Sequence record: SRR20825010_6051
Strand: one strand, 5' to 3'
Length of the DNA stretch: 41,545 nucleotides
In this document: in pieces, positions 13,541 to 41,513 of the stretch
Numbering within the stretch: the stretch's first letter is position 1
Layout of the letters: every line of letters starts with the position of its first letter
Notes under the pieces: model-generated
Told to the model about the DNA's origin: nothing
Databases searched by the model: none
Seen by the model: only the letters and a program-made list of their open reading frames with translations
Translations under genes and position numbers: made by a program

Positions 13541-13541
13541 G

Positions 13542-16059: not shown

Positions 16060-16072
16060 AGAGGAGACATTC

Positions 16073-17950: not shown

Positions 17951-17957
17951 TCGCCCC

Positions 17958-17994
17958 GGCCCGGGGCTGACCGTATCGCGGTCTGCCCCGGGCC
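17958..17994 (+). other. GC-rich stem-loop between tctC and tctB (mRNA stabiliser/attenuator)
   Basis: GGCCCGGGGC-t-GACCG...CGGTC-t-GCCCCGGGCC inverted repeat without a U-tract. Confidence 0.55.
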
Positions 17995-18049
17995 AGTCAG
18001 TCAGACCTGCGCAGCGGGTCAGTACAGATGTGCGAACGAGGAGATTCAA

Positions 18050-18502: not shown

Positions 18503-18506
18503 CCCC

Positions 18507-20033
18507 ATGCAATTTGATTTTCTGGACAACATCCTGTTGGGGTTCAACACGGCCGTAAGCCCCATGAACCTGCTATACTGCTTTTTCGGCGTCAGCGTCG
18601 GCATGGTTGTTGGCATCATTCCCGGCCTTGGTGCTTTGGCGGCGATGACGCTGCTGTTCCCGATCACCTTCTACCTTGATCCATTGGGCGCGTTGATCAT
18701 GATGTCGGGTATCTGGTACGGCACAACCTATGGCGGGTCGATCACCACCATTTTGCTGAACCTGCCCGGTGACCCCAAGAGCGCGGTCACCAGTCTTGAC
18801 GGGTACCCGATGACCAAGCAGGGGCGCGCGGGCGTCGCGCTTTTCATGACCTCCATTGCGTCTTTCGTTGGTGCAACCATCGGCATCCTGATCATGCTGA
18901 TCTTCTCTCCATTGATTACCGACGTCGCGATCCGTTTCAGCGCGCCCGAATATTTCGCCTTGATGATCCTCGGCCTGCTTGCCTCGGCTGTGATCGCCTC
19001 TGCGCCACTCATCAAAAGCGTGGCGATGGCGGTTCTGGGGGTGCTTGTCGGTCTGGTTGGGATGGATATCCACACCGGGGTTTCGCGGATGACCTTCGGA
19101 CAGATGGAGCTGATGGACGGGGTCAGCCTGGTCGCGATTGCGATGGGCCTTTTCGGGGTGACCGAAGTCCTCTCAAGCCTGCGCACGGACGCCGTGGCCA
19201 AACATGAACGACGCATCACGCTGCGCTCGATGCTGCCCACGCGTGAGGACATGCGCCGTTCCTGGGGGGCGATGGGACGTGGTGCCGGTGTCGGGTCGTT
19301 CTTCGGCATCCTGCCCGGTACGGGTCCGGCGGTTTCGGCCTTCATGGCCTACGCGATCGAGCGCCGCGTTTCACGCAGACCAAAGGAATTCGGAAACGGG
19401 GCCATCGAAGGTATCATGGGGCCTGAAACCGCGAACAACGCGGCGGATCAGACGGCCTTCATCCCCACGCTTCTGCTTGGGGTGCCCGGCACGGCCTCAA
19501 TGGCGTTGATGATTGGCATCATGATGATCCACGGGATCACGCCGGGGCCCGCGATCATGACCCAGAACTCCGAGCTTTTCTGGGGCTTGATCATGAGTTT
19601 CTGGATCGGCAACCTGATGCTGCTGATTTTGAATATCCCCTTCATCGGCCTTTGGGTCCGCATTCTCGATATTCCGTATCGCTACGTCTATCCTGCGATC
19701 GTGATGTTCGTCAGCATCGGGGCCTATTCGGTCAGCAACAGCATCTACGACGTCTGGATGGTGCTGATCTTCGGGATCCTGGGTTACGCAATGCGCATTA
19801 CCGGGTTTCCCGCAGCGCCGCTTTTGCTGGGGTATATTCTAGGTCCGATGATGGAAGAGAACCTGCGCCGCGCTTTGCAGCTTTCCGGTGGGGATTATAC
19901 GGTTCTCATAACGCGCCCAATCAGTGGCACGATCCTCGTACTGACGGCTGTGATGCTCGGCCTTGGGATTTGGTCCAGCTACCGCCTGCGCTGCAAGGAA
20001 CGTGCGGCGAACGATCTCGCGCTTGATCAGTGA
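18507..20033 (+). CDS. tctA: Tripartite tricarboxylate transporter large membrane subunit
   Basis: GIIPGLG, YGGSITTILLNLPG, DGYPMTKQGRAG, PETANNA, IPTLLLGVPG; start at MQFDF. Confidence 0.93.
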   Translation: MQFDFLDNILLGFNTAVSPMNLLYCFFGVSVGMVVGIIPGLGALAAMTLLFPITFYLDPLGALIMMSGIWYGTTYGGSITTILLNLPGDPKSAVTSLDGYPMTKQGRAGVALFMTSIASFVGATIGILIMLIFSPLITDVAIRFSAPEYFALMILGLLASAVIASAPLIKSVAMAVLGVLVGLVGMDIHTGVSRMTFGQMELMDGVSLVAIAMGLFGVTEVLSSLRTDAVAKHERRITLRSMLPTREDMRRSWGAMGRGAGVGSFFGILPGTGPAVSAFMAYAIERRVSRRPKEFGNGAIEGIMGPETANNAADQTAFIPTLLLGVPGTASMALMIGIMMIHGITPGPAIMTQNSELFWGLIMSFWIGNLMLLILNIPFIGLWVRILDIPYRYVYPAIVMFVSIGAYSVSNSIYDVWMVLIFGILGYAMRITGFPAAPLLLGYILGPMMEENLRRALQLSGGDYTVLITRPISGTILVLTAVMLGLGIWSSYRLRCKERAANDLALDQ

Positions 20034-20493: not shown

Positions 20494-20703
20494 CTACCCC
20501 AAGGCATAGGTGTCTATGCGCGGCGACATCGCGATTAGCCTTCGGAGCTTCGGCACTATTCAGGGCAACCTGCGACATCGGTCGAGATCGAAATTAATCG
20601 CGGAGCCGACGTCCGGCTGGATGCCCCCATGCGCAGGGTCACGTTCAGGTTGCCCCGACACTCCGAAAAGATCGACCGAGCGTCGAACCAAGAGGTGGAT
20701 GAA

Positions 20704-23700
20704 GTGTTCAAGCCCGCGTCAATCTGTTTTACGCATGTGCTCTACGGCAGCATGATCGCACTTGCGACGCTGTCGGCGTCCCAGCTGCGGGCCGGCGATT
20801 TCCTTCTGGACTGGAACGAGCTCGACTGGCCCACTGGGTCCACCGCAGCGCAGACTTACACGCTGACGGACCAGTACGGGTTCGAAGTGGACGCAACAAT
20901 CAATGTAACGGGCACTTTCACCAATTTCGGGACCCTTGTCACGCCGGATGAGACGAATACCTTTGGCGGCGGTGTGGGATCGCTGGCTTTTATCGTGGAC
21001 TCGCCTGCAAACCTTGGAAAGATCGGCGATTCAACAGCCAGAGCGCAGTTGAGCTTTACGTCGAATAGCATTCCTCTGCCAGTCAACGGGCTGCAGCTGG
21101 ACATCGTCGATGTCGACGCGGGGGATGCGAACACGACGATTGACCGCTGTGATTTCATCACCGTGACCGGCGACAACGGCGATCCGGCCCTGTCCGCGGT
21201 ATCGGCGACGCCCGTGTTTGTCCTGGGGCCTGGACCGGGCACCGGGACGACGGGCGTCATCGCCGCCAACCAGGCGCAATGTCTCTACATCGAAGGGCCT
21301 GTAGTGTCGCCGACCTCTAACAATGATGACAGGGGAACGGTCCGCGCGACATTTCCCGACAACACCTCGTCGGCGACCGTCATATATGACGAATCCATCG
21401 GCAATGTCAGAACCCAGCTCAGCTATGACCCCGCCGCACGGGGCATCGGCGTTCTGGCTGCAAGCGCCTTCACCGTCGGGCAGAGCATTTCGCTGGTCAA
21501 AACCTCGGACCCGTCCGAGCTTCCCGAACCGGGGACCACGATCACCTATACCTACTTTGTCACAAATGACGGGGTCCTGCCGTTCAACACCGGGCAGGAT
21601 ATCGTCATCCAGGACGATTCCGTTGCCACCGTGACCTGCCCGGCGATCACCGCCGACGTGCCGGTTGGCGGCACTCTTGAATGTACTGCGGAGTACACGG
21701 TGACCGTGGCGGATATCCTGAATGGCGGCCTAACCTCGACGGCGACGGCAGGTATCGGCCCGATCGGTCAGGCCTTTGACGACCGGCTGCAATCCGACGC
21801 CGAGACGCTGACGCTGCTCTATGCGCTGGGATATGATTTCGGCGATGCGCCTATCACCTATCTGGCGCCCTCGCACGCTATCGTGGTGTCTCCGACGGTC
21901 TACCTCGGCAACACGGCGCCCGATGCCGATGCCTTCACCCAGTCGAATCTGACAGCCACCGGCGACGACCTGTCGGACAGCGACGATGAAGATGGCGTTG
22001 CTCTGCCACTGCTCACCCAAGGCACGATTGTCACGATCACAGTCGATGTTGCGGGCGACGGTTATCTTCAGGCGTGGATGGACTTCAACGGTAACGGATT
22101 ATTCGAAAACGATGCCCTGGAGCGTCTGGCCACCGACCTGCGCGACGACGGAACGGGCGACGATCTCGTCGCCGGAGACGGTGAGATCCAGATCAGAGTA
22201 TCGGTGCCCGACGACGCCACCACATCACTGACCTTTGGTCGTTTCCGCTGGGCCTCCGAGGCCGGTCTTGGCATTTCGAACCCCACGCTGGATGGCGAGG
22301 TCGAGGATTATTCCTTTGTCATTGCCGCCGCCGATCTGGTCGACCGGGGCGACGCGCCTGCCAGCTATGGCGACCCGCGCCATATCGTGGTGCCGCTGAT
22401 ATATTTGGGCAACGCACTGCCCGATACCGAGACCTCGGACAGGTTTTCGGCCGATGCAGATGGCGACGATCTGTCCGGCATCGACGACGAAGACGCCACC
22501 AGCTTTCCGACACTGGCGGCGGGCGCCATCGTGCCGCTGACCGTGCTCACCCATGAAACGCTCAGCGTGCAGTTCGACCTGGGTTTGCCGGTTCTGGTGC
22601 CGGGCATCACCAACCTGCAGCTCTGGATCGACTACGACCAGAACGGTACGTTCGAGAGTGATGAACAGGTGGCGGTCGATTACCGCGATGGCGGCACCGG
22701 CGACACCGACGGTGTCTTCAACAACCAGATCACGCTGAACATCCCGGTGCCCACCGATATCGGCGACGGCGCCACCTATGCACGCCTGCGCTGGTCCACC
22801 ACCAGCGGCCTTGTCGCCGATCCGTTCGACGGACTGAACCTTGATGGCGAGGTTGAGGATTATCTTGTCACCCTGTCAAACCCCAGCAGCCCGCTTGCCG
22901 CGGATTTGTCGCTGACCAAAGCGGTGTTGCGTGCCTCTGATGGCCTGCCAACCACCTTGGCCACCGCCGGAGAAGCGCTGGACTTTGTCCTGACCGTCAC
23001 CAGTGACGGACCGGCTTCGGCCACCGGAATCCGGGTGCGGGATTTGATACCGAGTGGCTTTACCTATGTCTCGGACGATGCCGCCGCGCAGGGGGATACC
23101 TATGACGCCGATACCGGGATCTGGAATCTGGGCGATGTCCCCGCAGGCAGCAGCCATGCGCTGACCATTCGTGTCACCATGCGGGATAGCGGAAATCACA
23201 CCAACACCGCCGAGATCGTCGCCAGTTCGCTGCCCGATCCAGACAGTGATCCGGCCGGCGGCACCTTGGTGGATGACCTGTCCGACGGGCTGGCCGATGA
23301 TGACGAGGCATCCGTCACCGTGACGTACACCGGCACCGGCGCGACCCTCTCGGGCGTGGTCTTTCTCGATAATGGTGCGGGGGCCACAGCCTATGACGGT
23401 GTGCAGGGCGGGGCGGAAATCACCACCGACCGTGCCGTGGTCGAGGTCTATGACAGCGCCGGTGTTCTGCTTGGCGCCCCCGCTGTTGCCGCCGATGGCC
23501 GCTGGAGCCTGATCTTGCCCGATGGCTATATCGATGCGGTTACCGTCACTGTTCTGCCCGACGCAGGGCTGCGCCCCGTTTCGGAAACGGTCGCGGCGCT
23601 GCCGGGGATGGTGAATGCAGATCCCCGCGACGGAAGGTTTACGTTCACCCCGGCGGCGAGCACCTCTTACAACGATCTGAACTTTGGCCTGATCGTCGAG

Positions 23701-24423
23701 GCCCGGATGAATCTCGATCAGCAGGCGGCGATCCGCCCCGGTCAGGTCGTATCGCTTCGGCATGAATATGTCGCAGATTCCTCCAGCATAGTTGCTTTCG
23801 TCGTTGAAAACGAGACGAGCGCAAACCCCGGCGCGTTTTCTACCACGCTGTTTCTTGACACAGATTGCGACGGGTCAGGCGACACAGCGATCACCGCTCC
23901 GGTCGCCATTCAGGCCGGAACCCAGTTGTGCGTCGTCGCACGGGTGTCAGCCTCGTCGGCGGTCAGCCCGACCGCATCCTACAGCTTTGATCTGGTGGCC
24001 AATACCTCTTACGGAGCCTCGGGCCTGACCGAACAGGATCGCAACACCGACCGGGTGGCCGTAGAGTCCTCGCAAGGCGCGGTCAAACTGACCAAGACGG
24101 TGCGCAATGTAACCCAAGGCACCGCCGAAGGTGTTATCAACGGGGCGGGCGCCGGAGATGTGCTTGAATATCGTATCTACGTCCAAAACACCGGGTCCGT
24201 CCCGGCATCGGATATCATCATTTACGACAAGACGCCGCCTTACACCGCGCTTGCCGGCTCAGTGCCAAGCCCGATCAACCTGAGCAGCGGAGTAACTTGC
24301 AGCAGCGGCACACCGGGATCAGCCAGCAGTGGCTATGTCGGAAACTTGAGATGGGACTGTAGCGGACTGGTTCAGCCGGGGGACGAGGGATCTGTGTCCT
24401 TCACAGTAAGGGTTGCGCGTTGA
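20704..24423 (+). CDS. Secreted multidomain adhesin-like protein: N-terminal head, two GEVED domains, DUF11-type Ig domains, C-terminal truncated DUF11 domain
   Basis: GTG start after GAGGTGG; signal peptide MFKPASICF...SQLRA; DFGDAP...GEVEDY twice; DLSLTK...RDLIPSG...TNTAEI DUF11; C-terminal LTK...YDKTP...VSFTVRV. Confidence 0.85.
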   Translation: MFKPASICFTHVLYGSMIALATLSASQLRAGDFLLDWNELDWPTGSTAAQTYTLTDQYGFEVDATINVTGTFTNFGTLVTPDETNTFGGGVGSLAFIVDSPANLGKIGDSTARAQLSFTSNSIPLPVNGLQLDIVDVDAGDANTTIDRCDFITVTGDNGDPALSAVSATPVFVLGPGPGTGTTGVIAANQAQCLYIEGPVVSPTSNNDDRGTVRATFPDNTSSATVIYDESIGNVRTQLSYDPAARGIGVLAASAFTVGQSISLVKTSDPSELPEPGTTITYTYFVTNDGVLPFNTGQDIVIQDDSVATVTCPAITADVPVGGTLECTAEYTVTVADILNGGLTSTATAGIGPIGQAFDDRLQSDAETLTLLYALGYDFGDAPITYLAPSHAIVVSPTVYLGNTAPDADAFTQSNLTATGDDLSDSDDEDGVALPLLTQGTIVTITVDVAGDGYLQAWMDFNGNGLFENDALERLATDLRDDGTGDDLVAGDGEIQIRVSVPDDATTSLTFGRFRWASEAGLGISNPTLDGEVEDYSFVIAAADLVDRGDAPASYGDPRHIVVPLIYLGNALPDTETSDRFSADADGDDLSGIDDEDATSFPTLAAGAIVPLTVLTHETLSVQFDLGLPVLVPGITNLQLWIDYDQNGTFESDEQVAVDYRDGGTGDTDGVFNNQITLNIPVPTDIGDGATYARLRWSTTSGLVADPFDGLNLDGEVEDYLVTLSNPSSPLAADLSLTKAVLRASDGLPTTLATAGEALDFVLTVTSDGPASATGIRVRDLIPSGFTYVSDDAAAQGDTYDADTGIWNLGDVPAGSSHALTIRVTMRDSGNHTNTAEIVASSLPDPDSDPAGGTLVDDLSDGLADDDEASVTVTYTGTGATLSGVVFLDNGAGATAYDGVQGGAEITTDRAVVEVYDSAGVLLGAPAVAADGRWSLILPDGYIDAVTVTVLPDAGLRPVSETVAALPGMVNADPRDGRFTFTPAASTSYNDLNFGLIVEARMNLDQQAAIRPGQVVSLRHEYVADSSSIVAFVVENETSANPGAFSTTLFLDTDCDGSGDTAITAPVAIQAGTQLCVVARVSASSAVSPTASYSFDLVANTSYGASGLTEQDRNTDRVAVESSQGAVKLTKTVRNVTQGTAEGVINGAGAGDVLEYRIYVQNTGSVPASDIIIYDKTPPYTALAGSVPSPINLSSGVTCSSGTPGSASSGYVGNLRWDCSGLVQPGDEGSVSFTVRVAR

Positions 24424-28667: not shown

Positions 28668-28689
28668 GTACGCCCCGAAATGCAGAGGG

Positions 28690-29160
28690 TTATTGCTCAA
28701 CTCTGAGGCGATCCATCTGCCATATTGAACGGGAGTAGACAACCTCAACCTGATATTTCGTATTGTCGTCGTAGGGATAGACCAACCAAAGCGGCCCCTT
28801 TCCCCGGCGGGACATTGGCGCGCCATTCTGATGATAGGCGACGATTGGTGCGGTGTCCTCGATCTCGTCCAGAGGTATATCGACGCTGTAATCATTGATG
28901 GCTTGCGCCGTGATGGTGCCTTCAGACACCCCCAACTCCTTCAAGAGGGCCGCCAGAGGCACACCTTCAAAGGTCTGGGGCCCCTCTGTCCAGATGGTTT
29001 TGGTGACGAAGCTCTCTACGGGCATGGCCTGAAGCTCTTCGAGCGTGAAGCTATGAACCGTGCCATTGATGGTGGCGGTCAGCATGGCTGTTCCGTCAGC
29101 TTGCGCAAAACATGCAAGCCCCATGACGGCCCCACCCGCGACACAGGAAAGTAGGCGCAT
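28690..29160 (-). CDS. Small periplasmic protein with molybdopterin-oxidoreductase-like (Oxidored_molyb) fold
   Basis: Signal peptide ...CFAQA; TKTIWTEG..FEGVPL, AINDYSV, RGKGPLWLVYPYD, SIWQ. Confidence 0.8.
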   Translation of the reverse strand: MRLLSCVAGGAVMGLACFAQADGTAMLTATINGTVHSFTLEELQAMPVESFVTKTIWTEGPQTFEGVPLAALLKELGVSEGTITAQAINDYSVDIPLDEIEDTAPIVAYHQNGAPMSRRGKGPLWLVYPYDDNTKYQVEVVYSRSIWQMDRLRVEQ

Positions 29161-29343
29161 CTCTTTTCCCTTTGCGTGGTTTCGACAGAAACACTTTAGT
29201 TTTACGGGAAAGTATCAGCATGGTAGATTAAGGATAACGGCATATGCGTAAGCATATAAGTATGCCCAAAGGCCTATACTCCAGTGTGCCAACGACAGGA
29301 TAGGCTCGAAACGCAAGAATCAGCAGGCAGGATCCGAATAGGC

Positions 29344-29964
29344 ATGAGTCTCAGAGTATTGATCGCCGACGATCACGTCATGGTTCGGGATATGTTCACC
29401 ATGTATCTTGAAACCAGTGGTACGGCCCAGACGATCACCGCCGGGTCACTTGATGAGGCCGTAAAGCTGATGCAGCAGAAGGGTCCTTTCGATCTGGTTC
29501 TGCTGGACTACACCATGCCCGGAATGAAGGGGCTCAATGGGCTCAAGACCGCGCTGGCAGCCAGCGGTGGCCACCCTGTGGGCATGATCTCGGGGACTGG
29601 GACACGGTTGATCGCCCAGCAGGCTATTGAACTCGGTGCGGCGGGGTTCCTGCCAAAATCGATGCCGGCCAAGACACTGGTGAACGCGGTCAAGTTCATG
29701 GCGATGGGAGAGGTCTACGCCCCGGTCGACTTCATGTCCGGAAAAGACGACCCCGCAGAGACCGATTTCGAGAGAGAGCTCTCGGACCGGGAAAAGCAGG
29801 TTCTGCGCGGCCTGCTGTCGGCGAAGTCCAACAAGGAGATCGCGATCGACCTCGATCTTCAGGAAGTCACGATCAAGCTGCACGTCAAGACGCTGTGCCG
29901 CAAGATCGACGCCAAGAACCGTACCGAAGCGGCCATTCTTGCCCGCGATGCCGGATTCGTCTGA
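29344..29964 (+). CDS. NarL/LuxR-family response regulator
   Basis: VLIADDH, LLDYTMPG, GFLPK; HTH LSDREKQVL...SNKEIA..L...TIKLHV. Confidence 0.93.
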   Translation: MSLRVLIADDHVMVRDMFTMYLETSGTAQTITAGSLDEAVKLMQQKGPFDLVLLDYTMPGMKGLNGLKTALAASGGHPVGMISGTGTRLIAQQAIELGAAGFLPKSMPAKTLVNAVKFMAMGEVYAPVDFMSGKDDPAETDFERELSDREKQVLRGLLSAKSNKEIAIDLDLQEVTIKLHVKTLCRKIDAKNRTEAAILARDAGFV

Positions 29965-30042: not shown

Positions 30043-30259
30043 GCCCGCATGACAGCGGGCGATCAGAGCGCCCTCGCGCTCCACAGAGGGTTAGGGTCAC
30101 TATGCCAAAGGTCAGCGGCCTGACTTTGAGCAGTATCGATTAACCCATCCTCTTCCAAAACTCACGTTTCCTTTCAGGGCATTCCGGTGAGGCATTGCGG
30201 GGCACATGCCTCGCGTCGCTCAACCGCCGGACCAGCCCCGGCTCAAAAGGAAACTGCAC

Positions 30260-30772
30260 ATGTCCTATTGCATTGCACGCGTCAGCCAGGCCGTGGTCGT
30301 CGGCCTGACGCTCAGTCTGGCCGGGACAGTTGTCTCGGCCGATGCGCTTGAAAGCAACTTCTCCTTCCGCATCGTGGAGGCCGACGCCTCCGGTGAGGAG
30401 GTCCTTGTCGAACGCAACGCGGTCAAGCCGGGTGAAGTCATCCATTACGCACTGCGCCACCAGAACAAGACCGACAACTCCATGGCCGGTCTTGTCATCG
30501 CGGCTCCGGTGCCTGCGGGTGTGACCATCACCCTGGGCAACGAAGCAAGCTCTGTCCCCGCCACCTTCGAGGTGCAGGCGGAACTGGACCCCGAGAACGA
30601 TGGCCTTGAATGGTCGACGCTTCCTGCCATTCGCAAGATCGTCGACGCCAATGGCGCCCTTGTCGAGGAACCCCTCCCCGCCGCCGAAATCGTCGCCGTG
30701 CGCTGGAGTTTCTCCGAGGCTCTCGAAGCCGGTGAAGCGGCCCTCAACTCCTATCGCGTTCGCGTGAACTGA
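30260..30772 (+). CDS. Small secreted single truncated DUF11-like domain protein
   Basis: AAGGAAA RBS; signal peptide ...GTVVSA; VKPGEVIHYALRHQN...VRWSF...LEAGE...SYRVRVN*. Confidence 0.8.
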   Translation: MSYCIARVSQAVVVGLTLSLAGTVVSADALESNFSFRIVEADASGEEVLVERNAVKPGEVIHYALRHQNKTDNSMAGLVIAAPVPAGVTITLGNEASSVPATFEVQAELDPENDGLEWSTLPAIRKIVDANGALVEEPLPAAEIVAVRWSFSEALEAGEAALNSYRVRVN

Positions 30773-30818: not shown

Positions 30819-33461
30819 GTGACTTATCAATCAGCAATCCTGCGCACGTCCAGTGCCGCAGCCATCTGTGTCGCGCTCGCGTCTGTGGCACAGGCCGCCC
30901 CCGAAGCGGGCTCTGTCATCGGCAACCAAGCCGTCGCCACTTATACAAATGCCTCCGGCGACACGATCACTGTGACCTCGAACACGGTCGAAACCGTGGT
31001 CCAGCAGGTTGCAGGCGTGACCCTGACCTCAAACAACTCCGAAACGGTCGCGCCGGGCGGCAAGGCCTTCTTGCCGCATATCATCACCAACGACGGCAAC
31101 GGTCCGGATGCCTTCGATCTGTTGGTTGCCGAAAACGACACGGGTCCGCTTGAGACCTCGCAATTGGTCTTTTACCCGGATGCCAACATGGACGGTGTCG
31201 CCGATAGCGCCACGCCGTTGCTCGAAACCCCGGTGCTGGCCCCCGGCGAGCAGTTCGGCGTCGTGATCGAGGCCACCGTGCCCTCGACCAATGCCGCGGG
31301 TGACACTGACACGATCACCGTGACCACGACCTCGCAGTTGGACGGCACCATTCTGGCGACCAACATCGACACGCTGACCGTGTCGAACGACGCCATCATC
31401 GAGTTGGTCAAGTCGATGGTCGCTGACGCGTCTTCGGCTGGTGATCCCAGCATCATCGACGCCGGTGACACCGTCACCATCACACTGACATATTCCTCCA
31501 CCGGTCTTATCGCGGCCAACAACTACTCCGTGATCGATGTGCTCGACGCGGGCTTCGAATATGTGCCGGGAACAGCCGTGTGGTCCGACGCCGCAGGCGC
31601 GCTGGACGACGACAACGCCTCGACCCTGGTCGACGCCACCAACGGCAACGGCGAAACCATCGCCTGGGACTACGACGACAACCAGACCGTCAACTTCAAC
31701 ATCTCCTCGGTCGGGTCGGGTCGTTCGGGCAGCGTGACCTTCCAGGCGCGGATCGCCGCCACCGCCAATGCCGGCGTGCTGACCAACGTGGCCAGCCAGA
31801 ATGTCGACGGCACCGCCTTTCCGCCGTCGAACACCGCCTCGGTGACGGTGGACAGCCAGTACTCGGTCTCCATCGCGGACACCGCGATCAACCCCGATGG
31901 CACCGCCAACGGCACGGTCTTTTCGGCCACCGACGATGACACGGCGCAGAACGATGTCGTGACCGAGATCGGCGACGTCTACCAAGGCGCCACGGTCCGC
32001 CACGAATTCGTGCTGACCAATAACTCGAACGAAGCCGACAGCCTGTCGCTGGACTTTGCCAATGTCGACTACCCGGCCGGCACCACCTTCCAGATCGTGG
32101 GCGCCGACGGCATCACCCCGGTGATCGGTTCGGTCGGTCCGCTGGCCATCGGCGAAAGCACCAAGGTCACGCTGATCGCGACCCTGCCAACGAACGCCAG
32201 CCCGACCCTGGCTGGTGATACCAACTACACCGCCACCATGACCGTGACCTCGGATGCCTCGGGTGTCACCGACGTATCCACCGCCGAATTCACCGGCGCG
32301 GTGCTGGCGGCCTCGGTCGATCTCGAAGCAGCGGGTGGCCTCGGCGACGGCGCAGCACCGACGAATGGCGGCGCACCATGGGTGAGCAACACGACCGATC
32401 CGGCTCAACCCACGACCTTCGACATGGTGGTCCAGAACAACGGCCCGGTTTCGGACAGCTACAACCTGTCGCTGGCCCAGCCGCTGCCCCTGGGCTGGAC
32501 GGTGGAATTCCGTGACTCGGACGGCACGCTGGTGACCAACACCGGCACCATCCCGGCCGCCGGCTCGGACACCTTCACCGTGACGGTCATCCCCGCAGCC
32601 GATGCTCCGCCCGCAGACACGCCGATCGACATTCAGATCGAAAGCTCGGTCTCCGGCCAGGCGGACCGTATCGTCAACCAAGTCACCGTGAACGAGATCT
32701 ACGACGTGCAGATCCTTGAAGGTCAGAGCGTCCAAGCCTCGCCGGGCGGTGTGGTGGACATGCTCCACACGATCACCAACGAGGGCAACGTCGCCGTTAC
32801 CGAAGGTGCGATCATCCAAACGGGCCTCACCAACTTTTCTGGCGCGATCTTCTGGGACCAGAACGGCAACGGTGTTCTTGACGCGGGCGATCCGGTTATC
32901 GACAACTTCAATGACCTGACGGACGGTGTCGCTGCGGGGACCAACGGTCTGGCCGCGGGTGAGACGATCTCTGTCATCTACCGCGTCCAGACCCCCTCGA
33001 CCGCGACGCCCGGTGTGTCCGAGATCGGCACCCTGTCGCTTGGCACCGCGCTGAACGGCGGCACGGCGACGGACGCGGATACCGCGGACAACGCCAATGA
33101 GGACCGGATCACCATCATCGCCGGCGATGTGACCCTGACCAAGTACCAGTATGTCGATCCCGATTGTGACGGTACCGCGGGCACCTTCACCAAGACGCGT
33201 CAGCCGGTCGAGCCCGGTCAGTGCATCCGCTACATGATCGAGGCCGAGAACACCGGCAGCTTCGCGGCGGTTGACGTGACCATTTCGGACGCGGCACCTG
33301 CCTATACCTCCGTCACCAATTGCGGTGGATCGTGCTCGGAAACGCTGTTCCCGGCTGGCAGCACTGCGGCGATCACGTCCAGCGCCGTCTCCAGCGACCA
33401 TGGAACGGTTTTGCCTGGTGGCGTCGCACGGCTCGAGTTCACCGTACAGGTGGAAGACTAA
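30819..33461 (+). CDS. Secreted DUF11/Ig-repeat protein, putative major pilin/fibre subunit
   Basis: Signal peptide ...ASVAQA; T/D/A/G/N-rich Ig domains with DxNxDG-like loops; complete internal DUF11; truncated C-terminal DUF11. Confidence 0.85.
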   Translation: MTYQSAILRTSSAAAICVALASVAQAAPEAGSVIGNQAVATYTNASGDTITVTSNTVETVVQQVAGVTLTSNNSETVAPGGKAFLPHIITNDGNGPDAFDLLVAENDTGPLETSQLVFYPDANMDGVADSATPLLETPVLAPGEQFGVVIEATVPSTNAAGDTDTITVTTTSQLDGTILATNIDTLTVSNDAIIELVKSMVADASSAGDPSIIDAGDTVTITLTYSSTGLIAANNYSVIDVLDAGFEYVPGTAVWSDAAGALDDDNASTLVDATNGNGETIAWDYDDNQTVNFNISSVGSGRSGSVTFQARIAATANAGVLTNVASQNVDGTAFPPSNTASVTVDSQYSVSIADTAINPDGTANGTVFSATDDDTAQNDVVTEIGDVYQGATVRHEFVLTNNSNEADSLSLDFANVDYPAGTTFQIVGADGITPVIGSVGPLAIGESTKVTLIATLPTNASPTLAGDTNYTATMTVTSDASGVTDVSTAEFTGAVLAASVDLEAAGGLGDGAAPTNGGAPWVSNTTDPAQPTTFDMVVQNNGPVSDSYNLSLAQPLPLGWTVEFRDSDGTLVTNTGTIPAAGSDTFTVTVIPAADAPPADTPIDIQIESSVSGQADRIVNQVTVNEIYDVQILEGQSVQASPGGVVDMLHTITNEGNVAVTEGAIIQTGLTNFSGAIFWDQNGNGVLDAGDPVIDNFNDLTDGVAAGTNGLAAGETISVIYRVQTPSTATPGVSEIGTLSLGTALNGGTATDADTADNANEDRITIIAGDVTLTKYQYVDPDCDGTAGTFTKTRQPVEPGQCIRYMIEAENTGSFAAVDVTISDAAPAYTSVTNCGGSCSETLFPAGSTAAITSSAVSSDHGTVLPGGVARLEFTVQVED

Positions 33462-33474
33462 TCCCACCTGACTG

Positions 33475-33502
33475 GCCCCCGCCTTCGGGCGGGGGCTTTT
33501 TT
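33475..33502 (+). terminator. Intrinsic terminator inside the DUF11 operon
   Basis: GCCCCCGCC-TTCG-GGCGGGGGC-TTTTTT. Confidence 0.85.
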
Positions 33503-33555: not shown

Positions 33556-36500
33556 ATGCGCAGTTTTCTTCGCTTTGCCCGTCTGGGAGTGACCAGTTTT
33601 CTTGTCCTCACAGCTGTCATCCTGTCTCTTGCCCTGACGACTGACACCTCGGCATCCCCACAGCCAGCCGGGTCCATCATCCGCAACATTGCCCAGGTCA
33701 CCTATTTCGACACGGAACGCGGTATATTGGTCACCCTCGAGTCCAACGCCGTCGAAGCCCGCATCAGCGTGGTTCCGGCTTTCGAGGTTTCCGGACGCGA
33801 CGTGCTGCTTCTGGCCCGCGGGGCCCTTGATCAGTTCACCTTCCGCATCAGAAACACCGGCAATATCACGCTGGAGGTCACACCTACCCTTTCCGCATCC
33901 GGGGCAGTGAATCTGCGCCTGAACCCGCGGCTCTTTGTCGATCTCAATGGCAACGGTGTCGTCGACGCGGGGGAGCCGGAACTCTCAGAGGCCGATACCC
34001 TCGAGATCGCGACCGGGCTGTATGTCGATGTGATCCACACCTTTCAGGTGGCCCCGGGCGCAGGCCCCGGCGAGACCTTTGACGTCACCCTGAACGCCAG
34101 CGCCCGGCCAATCTTCACCACTGACCCCGATGGCGAGGGGGAGGTCTCTCGCATCACCGGCGAAGGTCTTGGCCGGGTTGAGATCGTTTCGGCCACGCTG
34201 GAGATCACCAAGTCGCAGGCGCTGCAGCCCGGCGCCGACCAGACCCGCGTGCTCTACCAGCTGGGACTGCGCAACGACTCTGACGCGCCCGTCGCGGGCT
34301 ACTCCGAAATCGACGGTATGCCGTTGCGCATCGACGACACCGTCGTGACAGGGGTTTTGCTGCGCGACGCGATCCCGCTGAACGCGCGCTTCGACCGCAT
34401 CGACGCCACCGCCGGGCTGACCGCGCTCTACCACCGCGCTGGCAACCCCGAGCATCACTACACCACCGCCGCGCCCGCCAAAGCCACAGAGATCGACGCC
34501 GTGGCCTTCTTCTTTGCCGGCGACTTCCCGATGGGGTATGCGGCCGATCTGGGCTTTTCGGTCATCGTCGATGCCGCTCTGGGCACGGTCGAGGTCGACA
34601 ACACGGCCCGCGCCTTTCTGCCCGCCACGGATGGCGTGGCCCAGATCCTGTCAAACCGGGTGAGCACCGCGCTCTACCCAAGCGCAGAGGGCGCGATGGG
34701 TTTCATCGATCCCGACAGCCGCCTGAATGTCGCAACCAGTGAACTGGACAGCAACCTGATCACGCGACTGGTGTCTGGCGCCTGCAACCTGACCACGGGG
34801 ATCGACACCATCGAGGTCACGCTGCAAAGCCTGCACAGCGGCGATATCGAAGTCTCGATCGCACGCGAAACCGGTCCCAACACCGGGGTCTTTGAAATCG
34901 CATCGCTGCCGGTCACCGAAATGGCCGTGCCGCGCACACGGGACGGCGTCATGGCGTCTTACCGGGGTGACACCATCCGCGCCGAGGCACGCTGCGGTGG
35001 CCAGTTGCTGACCGCCAGCCTCCTGATCGCGCCGGGCAACTTCGTCTTCGACGCGATCACCAACGATCCGGTCGAGGGCGTTGGCGTGTCCCTGATCGAC
35101 GCCTCCACCAGCATCGAGGTGGCGCGCGTAGAGACTGACGCTCGCGGCTATTTTGCCTTTGGCGACATCGAGGCGGGGACGTACAGATATGAGATCGTCG
35201 AGGCCCCGGAATGGAGTTTTCCCTCCGTACGGGCCGATTTCCGCGGCTTTGGCCGGATCATCACCGATGCGGCCTTCGGCGGCGGCTTTGCCCATTCCGG
35301 CGGCTTGCTGAGCGATTCTGACATCCCGGTCGATCCTTTCTACGGCGTTCCGGTGGCGCTGCAAAAGTCCGCCGACCGTGAGCGGGTGACGCAGGGCGCA
35401 TTCGTGACCTACACGCTGGAGCTGACCAACAACATGCGTCAGGCGCTGGTCGGTGCCGAGATCTTCGACCGCGCACCCTATGGGCTGAGCCTCGTCAAGG
35501 GTTCGGTGACGCTGGATGGCGCGCGCATCGGTGATCCGACCCGCGACCGCGACGGCGATCTGCTCTTTTCGATCGGTGATATCGCCCCGTTGGACATCGT
35601 CGAACTCAGCTACGTCATGTCCGTGGGCGCGGCCGCCCGCGAGGGCAAGCTTGAGAACACCGCCCTGCTTTCTGGCCGGCAGGCAGGCACCGGCACTTTG
35701 ATGCAATCGGCCCCGGCGCGCGCCATGGTGCGGCTGGACAATTCCGGCGGTGTTTTTTCCCGCCAGGGCACGGTTGTCGGCACGGTTTTCATGGATTGCG
35801 ACGGCAATGGCATTCAGGGCGACTGGCGCGAGCCGGGCATTCCCGGCGTGCGCATCGTCACCCAGGAAGGTCTGTTCGTGGTCACGGACCGCAACGGCAA
35901 GTACTCTCTGCCCGGGATGCGTCCTGTGACCCATGCCTTTCAGGTTCAGGCCGCCACGCTGCCCGAGGGCACCAAGGTCACCGTGACCCGCACCAACGAC
36001 CTGCGTCGCGGCGGATCGCGAATCGTGCCCCTGCGCCGAGGCGAATTGCGGACCGAGAATTTTGCGGTCGAGGCCTGCACCCCCGCAGCGCTGTCCGAGA
36101 TCAAGGTCCGCCGCATCCATTTCGACACCACGACGGCCCCCGACACGCTACGCGCGACAGATATGCCCATCGAAGGCGCGCGCAACCCGCAACGCTCGAC
36201 CCGCATCGAGGCCGGTGTTTCGACCACCACGCAACTGAGCACTGCCATGATGGCGGCCATGCAGGCCGAAAAGGACGGAAAGGCAGGACCGGACGGGGCG
36301 GTTTCACCGCGGCGCGCGGCGCTGAGCGTCAAGGCCCGCACCGCGCGCCGCCCGCTCGAATCCATGGTCAAATCGCTCGATCCGGAGCCCGGATTTATCG
36401 ACATCAAGGATGGCGATATCCTGACCCACCGCACCCAGAACATCCGGGTGAAGGGCAAGGCTGACCTGACGCTGGGCCTGTTGCTGAACGGCCGTGCCAT

Positions 36501-39348
36501 GGGTCGCGACCGCGTCGGTGAGCAGACCAGCTGGGCACCGCGCAACGTGCAGGCCGCAGAGTTCGTCGCGGTCAAGCTGCGCCCCGGCGACAACAGGTTG
36601 ACGCTGGTCGGTCGGGATGGCTTTGGCATCGAGCGGATGCGCCACGAAATCACTGTGACCGCCCCCGGCGACCCGGCGCGGATCGAGATCACCACCCCCG
36701 CCGAGGCCAGCGCCGACCCGGTCACTGGCGTGCCTGTGGTGGTGCGTATCCTTGACGCGCGTGGCCTGCCGGTGCCAGCCTCGGCCACCGTGACGCTGGG
36801 CGCGGACCGCGCGCTGTGGGACGTGACCGACATCCGCCCCGGCACCCCCGGCGTGCAGGCCTATATCGACAATGGCGAGGCGACCTTTACCCTGATCCCG
36901 CCGCAGGTTTCGGGCCCCGACCTGGTGACCGTGACCAGCGGCTTTGCCAAGGCCGAGGCGCGCATTGTCTTCACCCCCAATCTGGATGAGCGCATCATGA
37001 TCGGCGTGATCGAAGGCGCCGTCTCTCTGGGGGGAAAGACCGGTGGCGCGCTGCTGGACAAGGATGAGTTCAACCACTTCGAGGAAACCGCCACCGGCCT
37101 GCGCGGTGAGCTCTACCTCAAGGGTGCGATCCGCGGCGATGCCTTGCTGACACTGCGCTACAGCTCTGATCAGGACACGGAGGACCGGCTGTTCCGCGAC
37201 ATCCGCAGCGACGAATACTACCCGGTCTACGGTGACAACTCTGAACGCGGCTGGGACGCACAGTCTGCGTCGAACCTCTACATCAAGGTCGAGAAGGGCC
37301 GGTCCTACGTCCTTTATGGCGATATCGCGATCCAGCCCGAGGCACCGTCGTTCAAGCTGGGCGGGATGCAGCGCGTGGCCACCGGGGCCAAGGCCCACTG
37401 GGAAAACGACCGCGTTGCCGTCACTGTCTTTGCCGCCCGCACCGCGCAAGAGCAGCAGATCGTTGAATTCGCCGGACGCGGTATCTCAGGTCCCTATGAC
37501 CTGACCCTCGACGGGTACGTTGACGGCTCCGAGCGAGTCGAGATCCTGGTCCGCGACGAGGACGGCGGCGACATCATCAGCACCACCTCGCTGCGGCGGG
37601 GAACAGACTACATCCTGGATTTTTTCCGCGACACGATCACCTTTGACGACCCGGTCCGCCAGTTTGACTTTGACGGCAATCCGGTTTCGGTCCGCGTGAC
37701 CTACGAGGTCGAGCGCGCGGACGCCGAACGCTATTGGCTCTATGGGGGCGAGGTGAACTATGCCGCCAGTGACCGCACCAGCCTCGGCGTCCGCGCGGTG
37801 CATGCCGACGCCCGCCGCGGCAATCCGGCCCGCCAGCGCCTGCAATCGGCATATGTGCGTCACGAAACCCTTGGGGGTGGTGTCTGGGAGGCCGAGATCG
37901 CTCGGTCCGTGGACCAGGATGAGGTCAGCGATACCGCGCTACGTCTGTCCTATGACATCCGGACCGAGACAGAGCGGCTGTCTTTCGAGGCAATCCACAC
38001 CGGGCGCGATTTCATGTTCGGGGGGCTGGCGCGCCCGGGAACCACTCAAATGCGCCTGGCCTACGGGCTCGAGATCGACCGAAAGAGCGACCTGCAACTG
38101 GCGGCGGAATATGTCCGTGACCGTTATAAAGACAGTGCGCGCACCGCGCTGGACGCAACTTACTCCCGCCGTTTCAGCGAGGGGTTCCGCGGCGATATCG
38201 GCTTGGAATTGGCCCGCACCGACCGCGAGGGTCGCGTCGACGATCAGGTGGCCCTGCTGTTGGGCGGCCAGTGGACCCCGACAAACCGCGCGGGCGTCTC
38301 GATGCGCGCCCTGCTACGCCTGCCCTTCGCAGGTGACAACCGTGATCCGGCAGAGCTGACCTTGGGCATGACCCACGACGTCAAGCCCGGCTGGCGCGTC
38401 CACAACGAGATGGAGCTGAGCTTTGGCGATGACATGCTGATGACCCGCGCCCGCTATGGCATGGAATACCAGCTGAACGATTGGTTGTCGGGCACCACCG
38501 ATTTCAGTCGGGCCTCTGGCGAAGCCGAGGAAACCTGGCATCAGGGCATCGCGGCGGTTTGGCAGGTCAACGATCTGACGACCCTGCGCACCGACATCGA
38601 GCATTCGCGCGGCGCGCAGACAGGGTCGGACGCGCTGACCAGCATCGCGCTGGGGGCCAAGTGGCACGATGGCTTGGAATCGCTTGTCGGCGACGCGGAT
38701 TTCGATGTCACCTTCGAAGACGAGGGCAACACTTACTATGCCAGCCTCGGCATGGCAGCGCAGGTGAACGAGGATTGGACGGTGTTGGGCCGCACCCGCA
38801 TCGCCATCGACCAGCGCAACGGCGACGACCACCTGCGCACCCGGACCCGCATGGGCGCCTCTTATCGCCCGGTCAAAGACCCGCGTCTGGATGTGCTGGC
38901 GTGGTATGAGCATCGGCTGGACGAAAAGCACGGCCGCACCGAGACGCATTTGTGGTCCGTCGACGCCAGCTATGAGGCCGATGAGGATCTGCGTCTAAAC
39001 GGCAAGTATGCCGGTCAGCATCAGGCGGTTTCGGGCAATGGCTTTGCTGCGACAACCACCACACAGCTGGTTCAGGCCGGCGCCTATATCGATTTTGCCG
39101 ACGACCGGTTCCAGCTTGGCCTGAATGCGGCGAGCCTCTGGGACAGCCGCGGCGGCAGCACCACCGGTGTGGGGGCCGAGATAGGGTTCTCTCCCGCAGA
39201 GGGAGCCTTGCTGGCCATCGGCTACAACGCCGTCGATTCCCGCGTCGCGGGGATGTCTGACCTCTATCAGGATGGCGTGTACTTCCGCTTCAACCTGCTG
39301 CTGGACGACAGCCTGTGGGATCGATTGGACGGGTTTCTTGGCGATTGA
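33556..39348 (+). CDS. Large outer-membrane protein: DUF11 and SdrD-B/Ig domains plus a large C-terminal predicted beta-barrel
   Basis: AAGGAG RBS; signal peptide; two complete DUF11 domains; GTVFMDCDGNG...PGIPGV...TDRNGKYS; long amphipathic beta-strand region ending GVYFRFNL. Confidence 0.85.
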   Translation: MRSFLRFARLGVTSFLVLTAVILSLALTTDTSASPQPAGSIIRNIAQVTYFDTERGILVTLESNAVEARISVVPAFEVSGRDVLLLARGALDQFTFRIRNTGNITLEVTPTLSASGAVNLRLNPRLFVDLNGNGVVDAGEPELSEADTLEIATGLYVDVIHTFQVAPGAGPGETFDVTLNASARPIFTTDPDGEGEVSRITGEGLGRVEIVSATLEITKSQALQPGADQTRVLYQLGLRNDSDAPVAGYSEIDGMPLRIDDTVVTGVLLRDAIPLNARFDRIDATAGLTALYHRAGNPEHHYTTAAPAKATEIDAVAFFFAGDFPMGYAADLGFSVIVDAALGTVEVDNTARAFLPATDGVAQILSNRVSTALYPSAEGAMGFIDPDSRLNVATSELDSNLITRLVSGACNLTTGIDTIEVTLQSLHSGDIEVSIARETGPNTGVFEIASLPVTEMAVPRTRDGVMASYRGDTIRAEARCGGQLLTASLLIAPGNFVFDAITNDPVEGVGVSLIDASTSIEVARVETDARGYFAFGDIEAGTYRYEIVEAPEWSFPSVRADFRGFGRIITDAAFGGGFAHSGGLLSDSDIPVDPFYGVPVALQKSADRERVTQGAFVTYTLELTNNMRQALVGAEIFDRAPYGLSLVKGSVTLDGARIGDPTRDRDGDLLFSIGDIAPLDIVELSYVMSVGAAAREGKLENTALLSGRQAGTGTLMQSAPARAMVRLDNSGGVFSRQGTVVGTVFMDCDGNGIQGDWREPGIPGVRIVTQEGLFVVTDRNGKYSLPGMRPVTHAFQVQAATLPEGTKVTVTRTNDLRRGGSRIVPLRRGELRTENFAVEACTPAALSEIKVRRIHFDTTTAPDTLRATDMPIEGARNPQRSTRIEAGVSTTTQLSTAMMAAMQAEKDGKAGPDGAVSPRRAALSVKARTARRPLESMVKSLDPEPGFIDIKDGDILTHRTQNIRVKGKADLTLGLLLNGRAMGRDRVGEQTSWAPRNVQAAEFVAVKLRPGDNRLTLVGRDGFGIERMRHEITVTAPGDPARIEITTPAEASADPVTGVPVVVRILDARGLPVPASATVTLGADRALWDVTDIRPGTPGVQAYIDNGEATFTLIPPQVSGPDLVTVTSGFAKAEARIVFTPNLDERIMIGVIEGAVSLGGKTGGALLDKDEFNHFEETATGLRGELYLKGAIRGDALLTLRYSSDQDTEDRLFRDIRSDEYYPVYGDNSERGWDAQSASNLYIKVEKGRSYVLYGDIAIQPEAPSFKLGGMQRVATGAKAHWENDRVAVTVFAARTAQEQQIVEFAGRGISGPYDLTLDGYVDGSERVEILVRDEDGGDIISTTSLRRGTDYILDFFRDTITFDDPVRQFDFDGNPVSVRVTYEVERADAERYWLYGGEVNYAASDRTSLGVRAVHADARRGNPARQRLQSAYVRHETLGGGVWEAEIARSVDQDEVSDTALRLSYDIRTETERLSFEAIHTGRDFMFGGLARPGTTQMRLAYGLEIDRKSDLQLAAEYVRDRYKDSARTALDATYSRRFSEGFRGDIGLELARTDREGRVDDQVALLLGGQWTPTNRAGVSMRALLRLPFAGDNRDPAELTLGMTHDVKPGWRVHNEMELSFGDDMLMTRARYGMEYQLNDWLSGTTDFSRASGEAEETWHQGIAAVWQVNDLTTLRTDIEHSRGAQTGSDALTSIALGAKWHDGLESLVGDADFDVTFEDEGNTYYASLGMAAQVNEDWTVLGRTRIAIDQRNGDDHLRTRTRMGASYRPVKDPRLDVLAWYEHRLDEKHGRTETHLWSVDASYEADEDLRLNGKYAGQHQAVSGNGFAATTTTQLVQAGAYIDFADDRFQLGLNAASLWDSRGGSTTGVGAEIGFSPAEGALLAIGYNAVDSRVAGMSDLYQDGVYFRFNLLLDDSLWDRLDGFLGD

Positions 39349-39552: not shown

Positions 39553-40254
39553 ATGAAAACGACGTCTTTGACCCATGTGCTGGGTCTTGTGGTTACCTTG
39601 AGTGCAGGCGGCGCTCAGGGTCAGCAGGTCCTGTTTGGGATTTCCGACATTCGCGGCGACGGCCAGATCCAATTCGGGCTGGACCTCGGGCAAAGCGCGG
39701 CACCCATCTTCATCGACCGGTCAGAGCCTGCGGCAGAGCCAGAACGCGCGCCTTTCATCTCTTCCCGCTCGGGCGATCGATCCTCGCGGCTTTTGGATCT
39801 GATCGGCCATGCAGAGGCCAGTGGCGCTGGCTATGACAGCGTGCAACACGGCACGCGCACGAAGCCCGCGAAGCGCCCGACCGACATGACGATCGCCGAG
39901 ATACTTGACTGGATCGAAGCCACCCCTGGCCAACCCCACGCGATCGGGCGCTACCAGTTCATCCCCAAGACGCTGCGGGCTCTCGTGCGGCGCGGCGGGA
40001 TCGGTCGGCAGGATCGGTTTACACCCGCGCTTCAGGATCATCTTGCAAACATGCTGCTCGAGGATGCCGGCTACAGCGCCTTCGTGTCCGGGCAGCTTTC
40101 ACAGAAGCGTTTCATGTACAATCTGGCCGGGATCTGGGCCGGATTGCCGCTGCCCTCGGGGCGCTCACGCTATCATGGCTACGCGGGCAATCACGCCACC
40201 ATCAGCTGGAACACCTACAACAGCGAGGTCACGCGCATCTTTTCACGCCGCTAA
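39553..40254 (+). CDS. Secreted lysozyme-superfamily (lambda-R-like) muramidase/lytic transglycosylase
   Basis: Signal peptide; LLDLIGHAEA (putative catalytic Glu), AIGRYQFIPKTL, FTPALQD, LAGIWAGLP. Confidence 0.75.
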   Translation: MKTTSLTHVLGLVVTLSAGGAQGQQVLFGISDIRGDGQIQFGLDLGQSAAPIFIDRSEPAAEPERAPFISSRSGDRSSRLLDLIGHAEASGAGYDSVQHGTRTKPAKRPTDMTIAEILDWIEATPGQPHAIGRYQFIPKTLRALVRRGGIGRQDRFTPALQDHLANMLLEDAGYSAFVSGQLSQKRFMYNLAGIWAGLPLPSGRSRYHGYAGNHATISWNTYNSEVTRIFSRR

Positions 40255-41159: not shown

Positions 41160-41256
41160 GTGCGCTGCAAAAAGCGTTACATCGTCCGCGAAATCTACCG
41201 CGCTCTCTGCGCCACACCGGACCTAGTTCCTGCCGCTTGACAAATATAGGAGCATC
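41160..41256 (+). mobile_element. IS110-family transposase 3' remnant and right end
   Basis: VRCKKRYIVREIYRALCATPDLVPAA* (cf. RCLKRYxAREIY), then GCTTGACAAATATAGGAGCATC. Confidence 0.7.
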
Positions 41257-41513
41257 AATGCCCTCGCCGAAAGCATCATTGGCCTCTTCAAGACCGAGGT
41301 CATCAAGTGCCTCGGCCCTTGGAAGTCTGCCGGACAGATCGAGTGGGAAACGCTGAAATGGACCGACTGGTACAACAACACTCGCCTTCACAGCGCCATC
41401 GGCTACATCACGCCGCAAGAAGCAAAGGAGGCATTCTACGCAAGCTTGAATGCGGCCGAAAAAGCAGCCTAATCATTGAACCAGAAGCTATCCGGCAAAC
41501 CCGGGGTGGCTCA
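41257..41513 (+). mobile_element. IS3-family (IS51-group-like) transposase C-terminal fragment with right inverted repeat
   Basis: NALAESIIGLFKTEVI...GPWK...EWETLKWTDWYNNTRLHSAIGYITP...AA*; IRR TCCGGCAAACCCGGGGTGGCTCA. Confidence 0.85.

Follow-up and report, generated by a model that had tools for sequence, protein, structure and literature searches.

A fibre hairpin joined to a predicted 38-stranded outer-membrane barrel: a candidate base and exit pore for a split-domain surface fibre

Can a single protein serve both as the anchor of a surface fibre and as the pore through which that fibre leaves the cell? The question is raised by a 41,545-nucleotide stretch of marine bacterial DNA (sequence record SRR20825010_6051; "the window" denotes this whole stretch), in which an open reading frame (ORF) at 33556..39348 (+) encodes a protein of 1930 residues (P0001). 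A preliminary description of the window proposed that this protein is a fibre anchor and usher-like translocon, and the ORF is present as it claimed. The protein joins a fibre hairpin to a giant predicted outer-membrane barrel in one chain, and is probably both anchor and exit pore. We put the probability that it forms the base and exit pore of a split-domain surface fibre at roughly 60%; taken separately, it is likely that it anchors the fibre and likely that the barrel is the pore for its own stalk, while passage of the other subunits through the same pore is, on balance, the better bet.

The barrel had been suspected from a hydrophobic alternation in the C-terminal part of the protein. This pattern does exceed that of shuffled sequences (2.16 across ~780 residues versus 1.53 ± 0.10; none of 1000 shuffles as high), but it is not diagnostic alone, and the alternation statistic was dropped as proof of a barrel since the immunoglobulin-like (Ig) stalk was positive as well (1.87 versus 1.53 ± 0.08; 0/1000 as high). 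It is the fold model that settles the matter. AlphaFold2, run on residues 1143–1930 with 71 sequences, returned a mean predicted local distance difference test (pLDDT) of 88.8 and a predicted template-modelling score (pTM) of 0.84; DSSP assigned 44 strands to the model, six of which lie in a 95-residue insert, leaving 38 (7 before the insert and 31 after), a count read off the secondary-structure string rather than the coordinates. A single 38-stranded outer-membrane β-barrel is thus predicted at residues 1147–1916 (36994..39303, +), followed by a short C-terminal helix. The strand count and pore diameter proposed as a check therefore point to a large barrel, with a predicted backbone diameter of 68–72 Å for 38 strands, as against 43–48 Å for 24, by a standard geometric formula.

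Covariation among 399 sequences (effective number 285) backs the model, with 28 of the 37 adjacent strand pairs at z of at least 3.5, the weakest (pairs 6–7, 1–2 and 4–5) at 0.7–1.5, and strands 7 and 8 paired across the insert at z 8.9. A division into two barrels is unsupported: the adjacent-strand signals are continuous, no alternative closure rises above the scattered background (maximum z 4.3), and pTM is 0.84. Closure of the single barrel is implied by porins, which align to both ends of the model. Long and short loops mostly alternate, as expected of an outer-membrane barrel whose two termini are periplasmic, and a periplasmic C-terminus is further indicated by an OmpA domain that follows the barrel in 7 of 22 relatives, a set picked for extensions or split forms; in some barrels (P0059, P0136) TPR or TRAF-binding/TPR-S domains take the place of OmpA after the last strand. 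Loop 2 (residues 1204–1240; 37165..37275, +) ranks with the best-conserved segments (mean 0.69, versus 0.41–0.45 for strands 8–38) yet is modelled with low confidence, and could be a gate or cargo-binding loop.

The recommended structural comparison with SprA, FimD/PapC and porins yielded no close solved barrel, the best Foldseek TM-score being 0.29, with 0.24 for PapC and 0.21 for SprA. A second fold list placed FimD at the top (Z 15.8, root-mean-square deviation (rmsd) 12.0, 345 aligned), a rank not accepted as usher homology given the tie with LamB (Z 15.4) and an rmsd of 12. Searches of barrel profiles against sequences of solved structures gave only porin-strand and Ig matches. The predicted barrel would be wider than any solved so far, 38 strands against the 36 of SprA, which is described as the largest known barrel in a study that excluded 38-strand labels (bioRxiv 2026.03.07.710327, available part); AlphaFold2 has predicted the 36-strand topology without templates (bioRxiv 2022.10.09.511469, available part). 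A superfamily of 38- and 40-stranded barrels has been predicted (PMC8346858, families 003/002, available part), as have three 38-stranded barrels in Deinococcus radiodurans (PMC9388160, available part). The query shares with that superfamily its predicted strand number, and with its "cluster 15" the presence of long insertions and extra domains, so far as the available text describes them; judged by these descriptions, the query family likely belongs there. Unlike the reading developed here, the available portions of both papers give these barrels no function, cargo or operon.

Ahead of the barrel, the chain opens with a Sec-type signal peptide (residues ~1–33; 33556..33654, +), with a basic start and a hydrophobic core, and a donor hairpin (residues ~34–72; 33655..33771, +). 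A stalk of some six Ig-like domains follows (residues 73–845, borders estimated; 33772..36090, +), ending in a conserved DUF11 and SdrD-B pair, then an unconserved linker (residues 846–939; 36091..36372, +), which is the split point in relatives and may be a lumen-crossing segment, and two Ig-like domains before strand 1 (residues 940–1142; 36373..36981, +), periplasmic by strand parity. The DUF11/SdrD-B/Ig stalk of the preliminary description is borne out by Pfam matches over cut-off to DUF11 (600–707) and SdrD_B (743–813), alongside CarboxypepD_reg (497–547); DUF7925 (227–354) and a DUF2490 barrel match (1602–1827) fall below it. From NCBIfam come only a DUF11 repeat and a faint match to SdrD, and the whole protein matched no sequence of a solved structure at E ≤ 1. 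As had been stated, usher, secretin and OmpA families are missing from its Pfam scan, and no export machinery was recognised when 39 window ORFs (16 + 23, one in both) were compared with Pfam, the window holding 109 ORFs of at least 100 residues, many in alternative frames. Among representatives clustered at 50% identity, 2189 relatives reach E ≤ 1e-3, the nearest being from Rhodobacteraceae, with 58–66% identity across the barrel; the nearest genome compared (G001) has no match to the barrel protein.

What, then, would the hairpin hold? The preliminary description spoke of an N-terminal donor strand; a donor element is present, but it is a two-strand hairpin, common to the N-terminus of the pilin, and corresponds to the final pair of strands in a DUF11/CLIPPER domain. 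The CLIPPER domain 9IFR aligns to an internal DUF11 domain with E 2.9e-11. Its isopeptide bond joins Lys715 to Asn806, with Asp748 catalytic (bioRxiv 2025.04.25.650565 = PMC12617251, available part). These positions are kept in the query as K604/D638/N701, and in 237 internal domains as Lys in 192, Asp in 227 and Asn in 212; the Lys–Asn spacing of 91 equals that in the CLIPPER paper, with the Asp at +34 here versus +33 there. A second complete stalk domain retains the set as K219/D271/N349, assigned by motif.

In the partner proteins the domain appears to be cut. The candidate partners are an 880-residue pilin-like subunit (30819..33461, +) with an N-terminal donor hairpin (N36) and a C-terminal truncated DUF11 acceptor (K775, D824); a 1264-residue GEVED/DUF11 protein (20629..24423, +), a candidate tip adhesin with a C-terminal acceptor (K1156, D1200) and no donor; and a small secreted, acceptor-only DUF11-like protein (30206..30772, +) that has no catalytic Asp. 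Against a complete-domain profile of 133 columns, built on an internal DUF11 domain, the acceptor C-terminal domains are confined to columns 3–95 in 58/58 pilins, 13/13 adhesins and 47/47 small proteins, while the N-terminal stretch of 42 residues in barrel proteins falls in columns 96–132, 22 of 43 at p<0.01, against a scattered 5–9 of 43 in shuffles. The residues follow the same division. Asn occurs in the hairpin of 41 of 43 aligned relatives, and the query hairpin carries it as Asn44; pilin acceptors hold Lys in 57/58 and Asp in 58/58, the adhesins hold both in 13/13, and no small protein (0/47) has Asp at the catalytic column. These conservation figures are conditional on members having been gathered by similarity, and some rows were dropped before alignment (2 of 59 pilin references, which were of adhesin type, 3 of 45 N-terminal and 9 of 20 adhesin rows, with one adhesin added). 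A further claim, that the small protein lacks the Lys, was abandoned: 18 of 47 have a Lys two columns further along, and the alignment register there is uncertain. The N-terminal region profile did not find the hairpin match in a single internal DUF11 sequence; the family profile found it. Searches against solved structures gave nothing useful for the small-protein profile and one chance match for the pilin.

Completion of the truncated last domain of pilin and tip adhesin by the N-terminal hairpin is thus supported by computation, and the profile complementarity and residue conservation uphold the proposal of a fibre-base anchor acting by donor complementation. The arrangement suggests that the donor-only barrel protein would be the base, the pilin, both donor and acceptor, the shaft, and the acceptor-only GEVED protein the tip. 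Because the isopeptide residues are split between partner chains, the fibre may be covalently linked through inter-chain isopeptide bonds. The small protein, an acceptor that lacks the catalytic Asp and so probably cannot lock, is a candidate hairpin chaperone or cap. The order small gene, pilin, barrel gene is kept by 10 of the 12 genome loci, contig ends cutting the remaining two; the cassette turns up again in metagenomes and on a plasmid of Acinetobacter, with an OmpA gene and a tip-like DUF11 gene downstream, and in a Thioclava locus (L003) a tip adhesin homologue immediately precedes the small gene. Between the pilin and barrel genes is a terminator-like hairpin (33474..33497, +; 10-bp stem, T tail), which fits an arrangement that would favour excess pilin; the terminator scan by itself is weak, finding 10 sites in the region against 7.2 ± 2.5 in shuffles.

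Whether the barrel also exports is best approached through its split relatives. The DUF11 – SdrD-B – linker – Ig – Ig – barrel architecture is conserved, in contrast to the linker sequence, which is matched by 4 of 151 proteins and varies in length (median 96, range 35–228, n=179), and many relatives are split there. Short, Met-starting Ig-plus-barrel forms make up 56 of 264 collected proteins, 50 of them with a hydrophobic N-terminal stretch; all 56 keep the second Ig domain and one keeps the first. Of 115 loci in a census, 74 remained once exact duplicates were removed and both an intact barrel start and no less than 3.5 kb of upstream sequence were required. Stalk-bearing loci carried both small and pilin genes in 51 of 55 cases, and stand-alone-barrel loci were without them in 17 of 19, the two exceptions looking like broken fused genes. 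Directly upstream of the stand-alone barrel lies a DUF11-ending gene in 23/23 loci tested (22 with SdrD-B too), overlapping the barrel gene by 1 or 4 bases in 14 of the 23; twenty loci (L126–L145) were hand-picked and include close kin, and the sample is therefore not random. The upstream partners are mostly very large (740–3196 residues when complete, and up to >3700 when cut), and their DUF11 + SdrD-B end is the equivalent of query residues 600–845, as a Devosia plasmid example illustrates. Two loci (L134, 9741–15713, –; L133, 16000–18261, –) have hybrid layouts, with a stand-alone barrel, a separate stalk gene, more DUF11-ending genes upstream and no small gene.

From this gene arrangement, a barrel kept beside a separate, unanchored and very long partner most plausibly exports or holds it, and a translocon role is favoured because stand-alone barrels adjoin such a cargo gene in every locus tested. 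In the fused form the stalk is attached to the periplasmic start of strand 1, so that it could reach the outside only via its own barrel. The export pore of the preliminary description thus gains indirect support from the split forms, but an association of carriers with GspD of type II secretion, taken up below, urges caution.

The following course of events can be proposed. All parts would enter the periplasm via Sec, and the β-barrel assembly machinery (BAM) would insert the barrel, leaving the two Ig domains before strand 1 in the periplasm. The stalk would leave through the ~70-Å barrel, tethered by the ~96-residue linker in the manner of an autotransporter passenger, and the pilins and tip adhesin would exit by the same pore. 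Each hairpin would enter the acceptor domain of the next subunit outward, from barrel protein to pilin(n) to adhesin, and an autocatalytic Lys–Asn bond may lock the chains, pilin K775 and D824 acting with barrel Asn44 or with Asn36 of the next pilin. The small protein, as an acceptor lacking the catalytic Asp, would shield hairpins reversibly. Growth might take place either in the periplasm at the base, with the barrel hairpin as terminator, or outside at the tip. A bolder version of this scheme is tentative, falling a little short of even odds: an undescribed route built on the widest single-chain barrel predicted with a function, occurring in three layouts (fused giant adhesin, separate giant adhesin, and pilus pore plus base), with subunits that lock themselves by inter-chain isopeptide bonds without sortase, and an "inverse" chaperone that sheathes the donor hairpin rather than filling the acceptor groove.

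Several points weigh against a combined base and exit pore. Closure between strands 1 and 38 is weakly supported by covariation (z 2.6, a value reached by 8 of 627 background pairs), and parts of loops 1 and 2 have pLDDT <50 and could plug the lumen. The query's own hairpin scores no better than p=0.016 with the profile, signal peptides were recognised by eye or by a crude hydropathy test, which 50 of 56 short barrel relatives passed, and a hairpin fixed at the pore could cap the first subunit and halt growth. No experiments on any family member were found in the literature, and full-text searches, in which subscription journals were mostly missing and "duf11" also matched DUF11xx names, returned no description of the export or assembly system; the available parts of PMC10629564 and PMC12617251 contain nothing on it. 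To these is added the distribution of type II secretion. Of the 401 proteobacterial genomes sampled, 43 carry the barrel (12 further matches, Ig-only or weakly porin-like, being left out), and GspD exceeds its cut-off in 36 of the 43 carriers versus 170 of the 358 others (naive p 7e-6); within one family the counts are 14/14 carriers versus 30/50, kin not being independent in either comparison.

This association lends itself to an explanation in which the barrel is an anchor and self-exporter only, passing its own stalk or gripping the C-terminal module of its partner, with pilins and adhesin leaving by type II or another route and snapping on outside. Growth from a fixed basal hairpin would indeed be simplest at the outer tip, and BsaA of Clostridium perfringens polymerises without an usher, by donor exchange and an isopeptide lock (bioRxiv 2024.11.04.621531, available part). 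We nevertheless regard this as unlikely, given the unbroken adjacency of stand-alone barrels to cargo genes and the existence of carriers in which GspD does not pass the cut-off: 10 of 50 (7 of 43, plus 3 of 7 close relatives) show sub-threshold secretin matches or none, so type II secretion is not obligatory. Among these are G180, which is 100% complete and has a pilus-type locus (L143), and the close Rhodobacteraceae carriers G402, G403 and G408. Of two culturable carriers, Pseudooceanicola marinus LMG 23705 has no GspD above the cut-off, whereas Sulfitobacter brevis DSM 11443 does have GspD. Two separate barrel loci each, in several cases of differing layout, occur in G068, G136, G180, G217, G323 and G344; in G068 one contig (C17) carries a barrel locus of stand-alone type (L137) and, ~12 kb away, a gspD match, which may be chance. 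A role without export, as an envelope connector that faces the periplasm or as a solute channel whose Ig chain is periplasmic, would suit the parity that places the junction of stalk and barrel on the periplasmic side, as well as the weak porin-type matches and the annotation of some relatives as "TonB-dependent receptor". We consider it very improbable, since partners of 2000 to >3700 residues far exceed the width of the periplasm, DUF11 is a domain typically seen in the stalks of surface adhesins, the OmpA domain that binds the wall is at the opposite, C-terminal end, and the barrel has 38 strands versus 22 and no TonB-receptor Pfam family.

The remaining alternative, in which the barrel is distantly related to the type IX translocon SprA as a minimal version of it, with an outer cap and sideways release of cargo, turns on the 95-residue insert between strands 7 and 8 (37447..37731, +), a β-sandwich in the fold model, extracellular by parity, that folds alike when modelled alone. 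Inside it lies the segment (37525–37644) which the preliminary description likened to SprA. The weak motif and a fold match are real: TIGR04189 was the commonest NCBIfam match for strands 4–8 with the insert, found in 11 of 78 members (best E 4.9e-4), a rescan of the query and 15 chosen relatives matched ~50 residues of eight proteins to SprA profile positions 609–660, and the insert model aligns to SprA (6h3i, chain range 259–785) with Z 6.2, rmsd 3.0 and 83 residues aligned. But that alignment ranks 23rd, behind phage neck, tail and fibre-attachment domains (Z 7–8.0), the T7 fibre N-terminus (8.3–8.8) and F-ENA (7.0), so SprA is not singled out. The profile scores are 10–17 bits against a cut-off of 200, 7 of the 11 matching relatives come from one bacterial family, the query itself has no TIGR04189 match in the NCBIfam scan, and SprA was absent at E ≤ 10 from the matches of two profiles, one of the insert alone (79 rows) and one that adds strands 4–8 (78 rows). 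Neither G001 nor any of 14 control genomes gave a match when searched for SprA, and no usher plug is among the best 50 matches listed for the insert model. Despite the similar barrel size, the whole-barrel TM-score is low, 95 residues would be too few to cap a 38-stranded pore, and a covalently attached stalk cannot leave sideways as free cargo. A translocon of this SprA type appears improbable, though a distant common ancestor is possible; the likeness, weakly real, points to a widely shared small domain found also in phage tails.

Elsewhere in the window, a 233-residue secreted lysozyme-like protein (39553..40254, +; PHROG 90 endolysin, E 1.2e-15, no Pfam family) is encoded downstream of the barrel gene, as in 8 of 12 close loci (L001–L012), and may open the peptidoglycan. 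Between the tip adhesin and the cassette (26112–29964) are genes for a hybrid histidine kinase, a molybdenum cofactor (Moco)-type oxidoreductase-like protein and a LuxR-type response regulator, a block also found whole or in part upstream in L001, L006, L007, L011 and a Pacificitalea plasmid, and which may regulate the fibre. On that 55-kb plasmid (L015, NZ_CP021408.1, 1171–20415) the cassette, kinase and regulator accompany polysaccharide genes and a CsgG/HfaB-family gene; the plasmid copy and the lack of the system in G001 suggest that it may be mobile. Broken copies also occur: the pilin lies in several ORFs on an Acinetobacter haemolyticus plasmid (L013, 9231–11434), and the barrel gene is interrupted in metagenome loci L059 (6162–11393) and L061 (7275–12634), through decay or assembly error. 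A 973-residue subtilase with a P-domain, RTX and DUF4214 repeats (1120–4041) is probably type I-secreted, with no type I exporter among the window ORFs scanned. A co-directional catabolic cluster at 8137–20033, with two divergent LysR genes upstream, is unrelated to the fibre, and holds genes for a thiamine pyrophosphate (TPP) enzyme, aldehyde dehydrogenase, GMC oxidoreductase, dehydroquinase II, SDR, RraA-like aldolase and Tct transporter. The segment ~41240–41480 resembles, by eye, the 3′ remnant of an insertion-sequence transposase, with no Pfam match in the frames scanned.

If the proposed base and exit pore is real, it would supply a function for the 38–40-stranded barrels predicted since 2021 and an additional protein export route in Gram-negative bacteria, possibly one used by some giant Ig-repeat adhesins for which, beyond a signal peptide, no secretion signal is known. 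A pilus that locks itself covalently would be new for Gram-negatives, the split CLIPPER pair is a candidate natural tag/catcher, and a ~70-Å single-chain pore would be of interest for surface display and for the folding of very large barrels by BAM.

How does this candidate system stand beside those already known? In chaperone-usher pili the tip is assembled first and the anchor last, FimI or PapH serving as terminator/anchor, and the polarity proposed here is the same. Both have Sec-exported Ig subunits, donor complementation, an acceptor-only tip adhesin and a large barrel encoded in the operon. The differences are considerable: here anchor and pore would be one chain, the donor is a two-strand hairpin of CLIPPER fold and not one strand, the candidate chaperone is an acceptor and not a donor, and a covalent lock is possible. 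No Usher, PapC_N or PapC_C Pfam family was found in the query or in 23 barrel-region relatives (E ≤ 0.05), and no PapD-family chaperone gene among the window ORFs scanned, the small protein being DUF11-like. Ushers have a plug domain inserted in the barrel and lying in its lumen; the model of the query has an insert after strand 7, which strand parity would place outside the cell. Fimbrial ushers have 24 strands (bioRxiv 2026.03.07.710327, available part) against the 38 of the query. "Usher-like", as the preliminary description had it, therefore holds by analogy only, the strand number differing and usher domains not having been found.

In type Va secretion the autotransporter barrel has 12 strands, and in type Vb an Omp85-type barrel of 16 strands is accompanied by POTRA domains. 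The query shares the type V order of signal, passenger, linker and C-terminal barrel, and its stand-alone relatives recall type Vb in having a separate cargo gene beside the barrel gene; its barrel is of neither kind, its cargo consists of Ig repeats, and its predicted pore would, unlike that of type V, be wide enough for folded domains. TonB-dependent receptors have 22 strands and an N-terminal plug, and neither trait appears in the Pfam scan or fold model of the query. With SprA it has in common a very large single-chain barrel, a small β-sandwich of the same fold and the weak ~50-residue motif. SprA has 36 strands, an extracellular cap and a lateral opening, and works with PorV (PMC10994853, available part). 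The query differs in being proteobacterial and in fitting 38 strands into ~770 residues, as compared with a 2319-position family model; no member exceeded 17 bits against the TIGR04189 cut-off, and no PorV, Gld/Por motor or cargo bearing the type IX C-terminal domain turned up in general window scans, which included no dedicated search for them.

The internal domains share the Lys/Asp/Asn set of CLIPPER 9IFR; in the fibre proteins the domain would in addition be cut between chains, making the bond intermolecular, an arrangement not described in the available part of bioRxiv 2025.04.25.650565. For BsaA fibres, donor exchange followed by an intermolecular isopeptide lock has mutational support (bioRxiv 2024.11.04.621531, available part). 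The same two steps are proposed here, with the difference that BsaA has a TasA-like fold, is Gram-positive and has no outer-membrane barrel. By the features compared, all computational, the protein falls outside the usher, type V, type IX and TonB-receptor families; it may be likened to an usher and an autotransporter combined, belonging to neither family, and is a candidate for a new export and assembly system.

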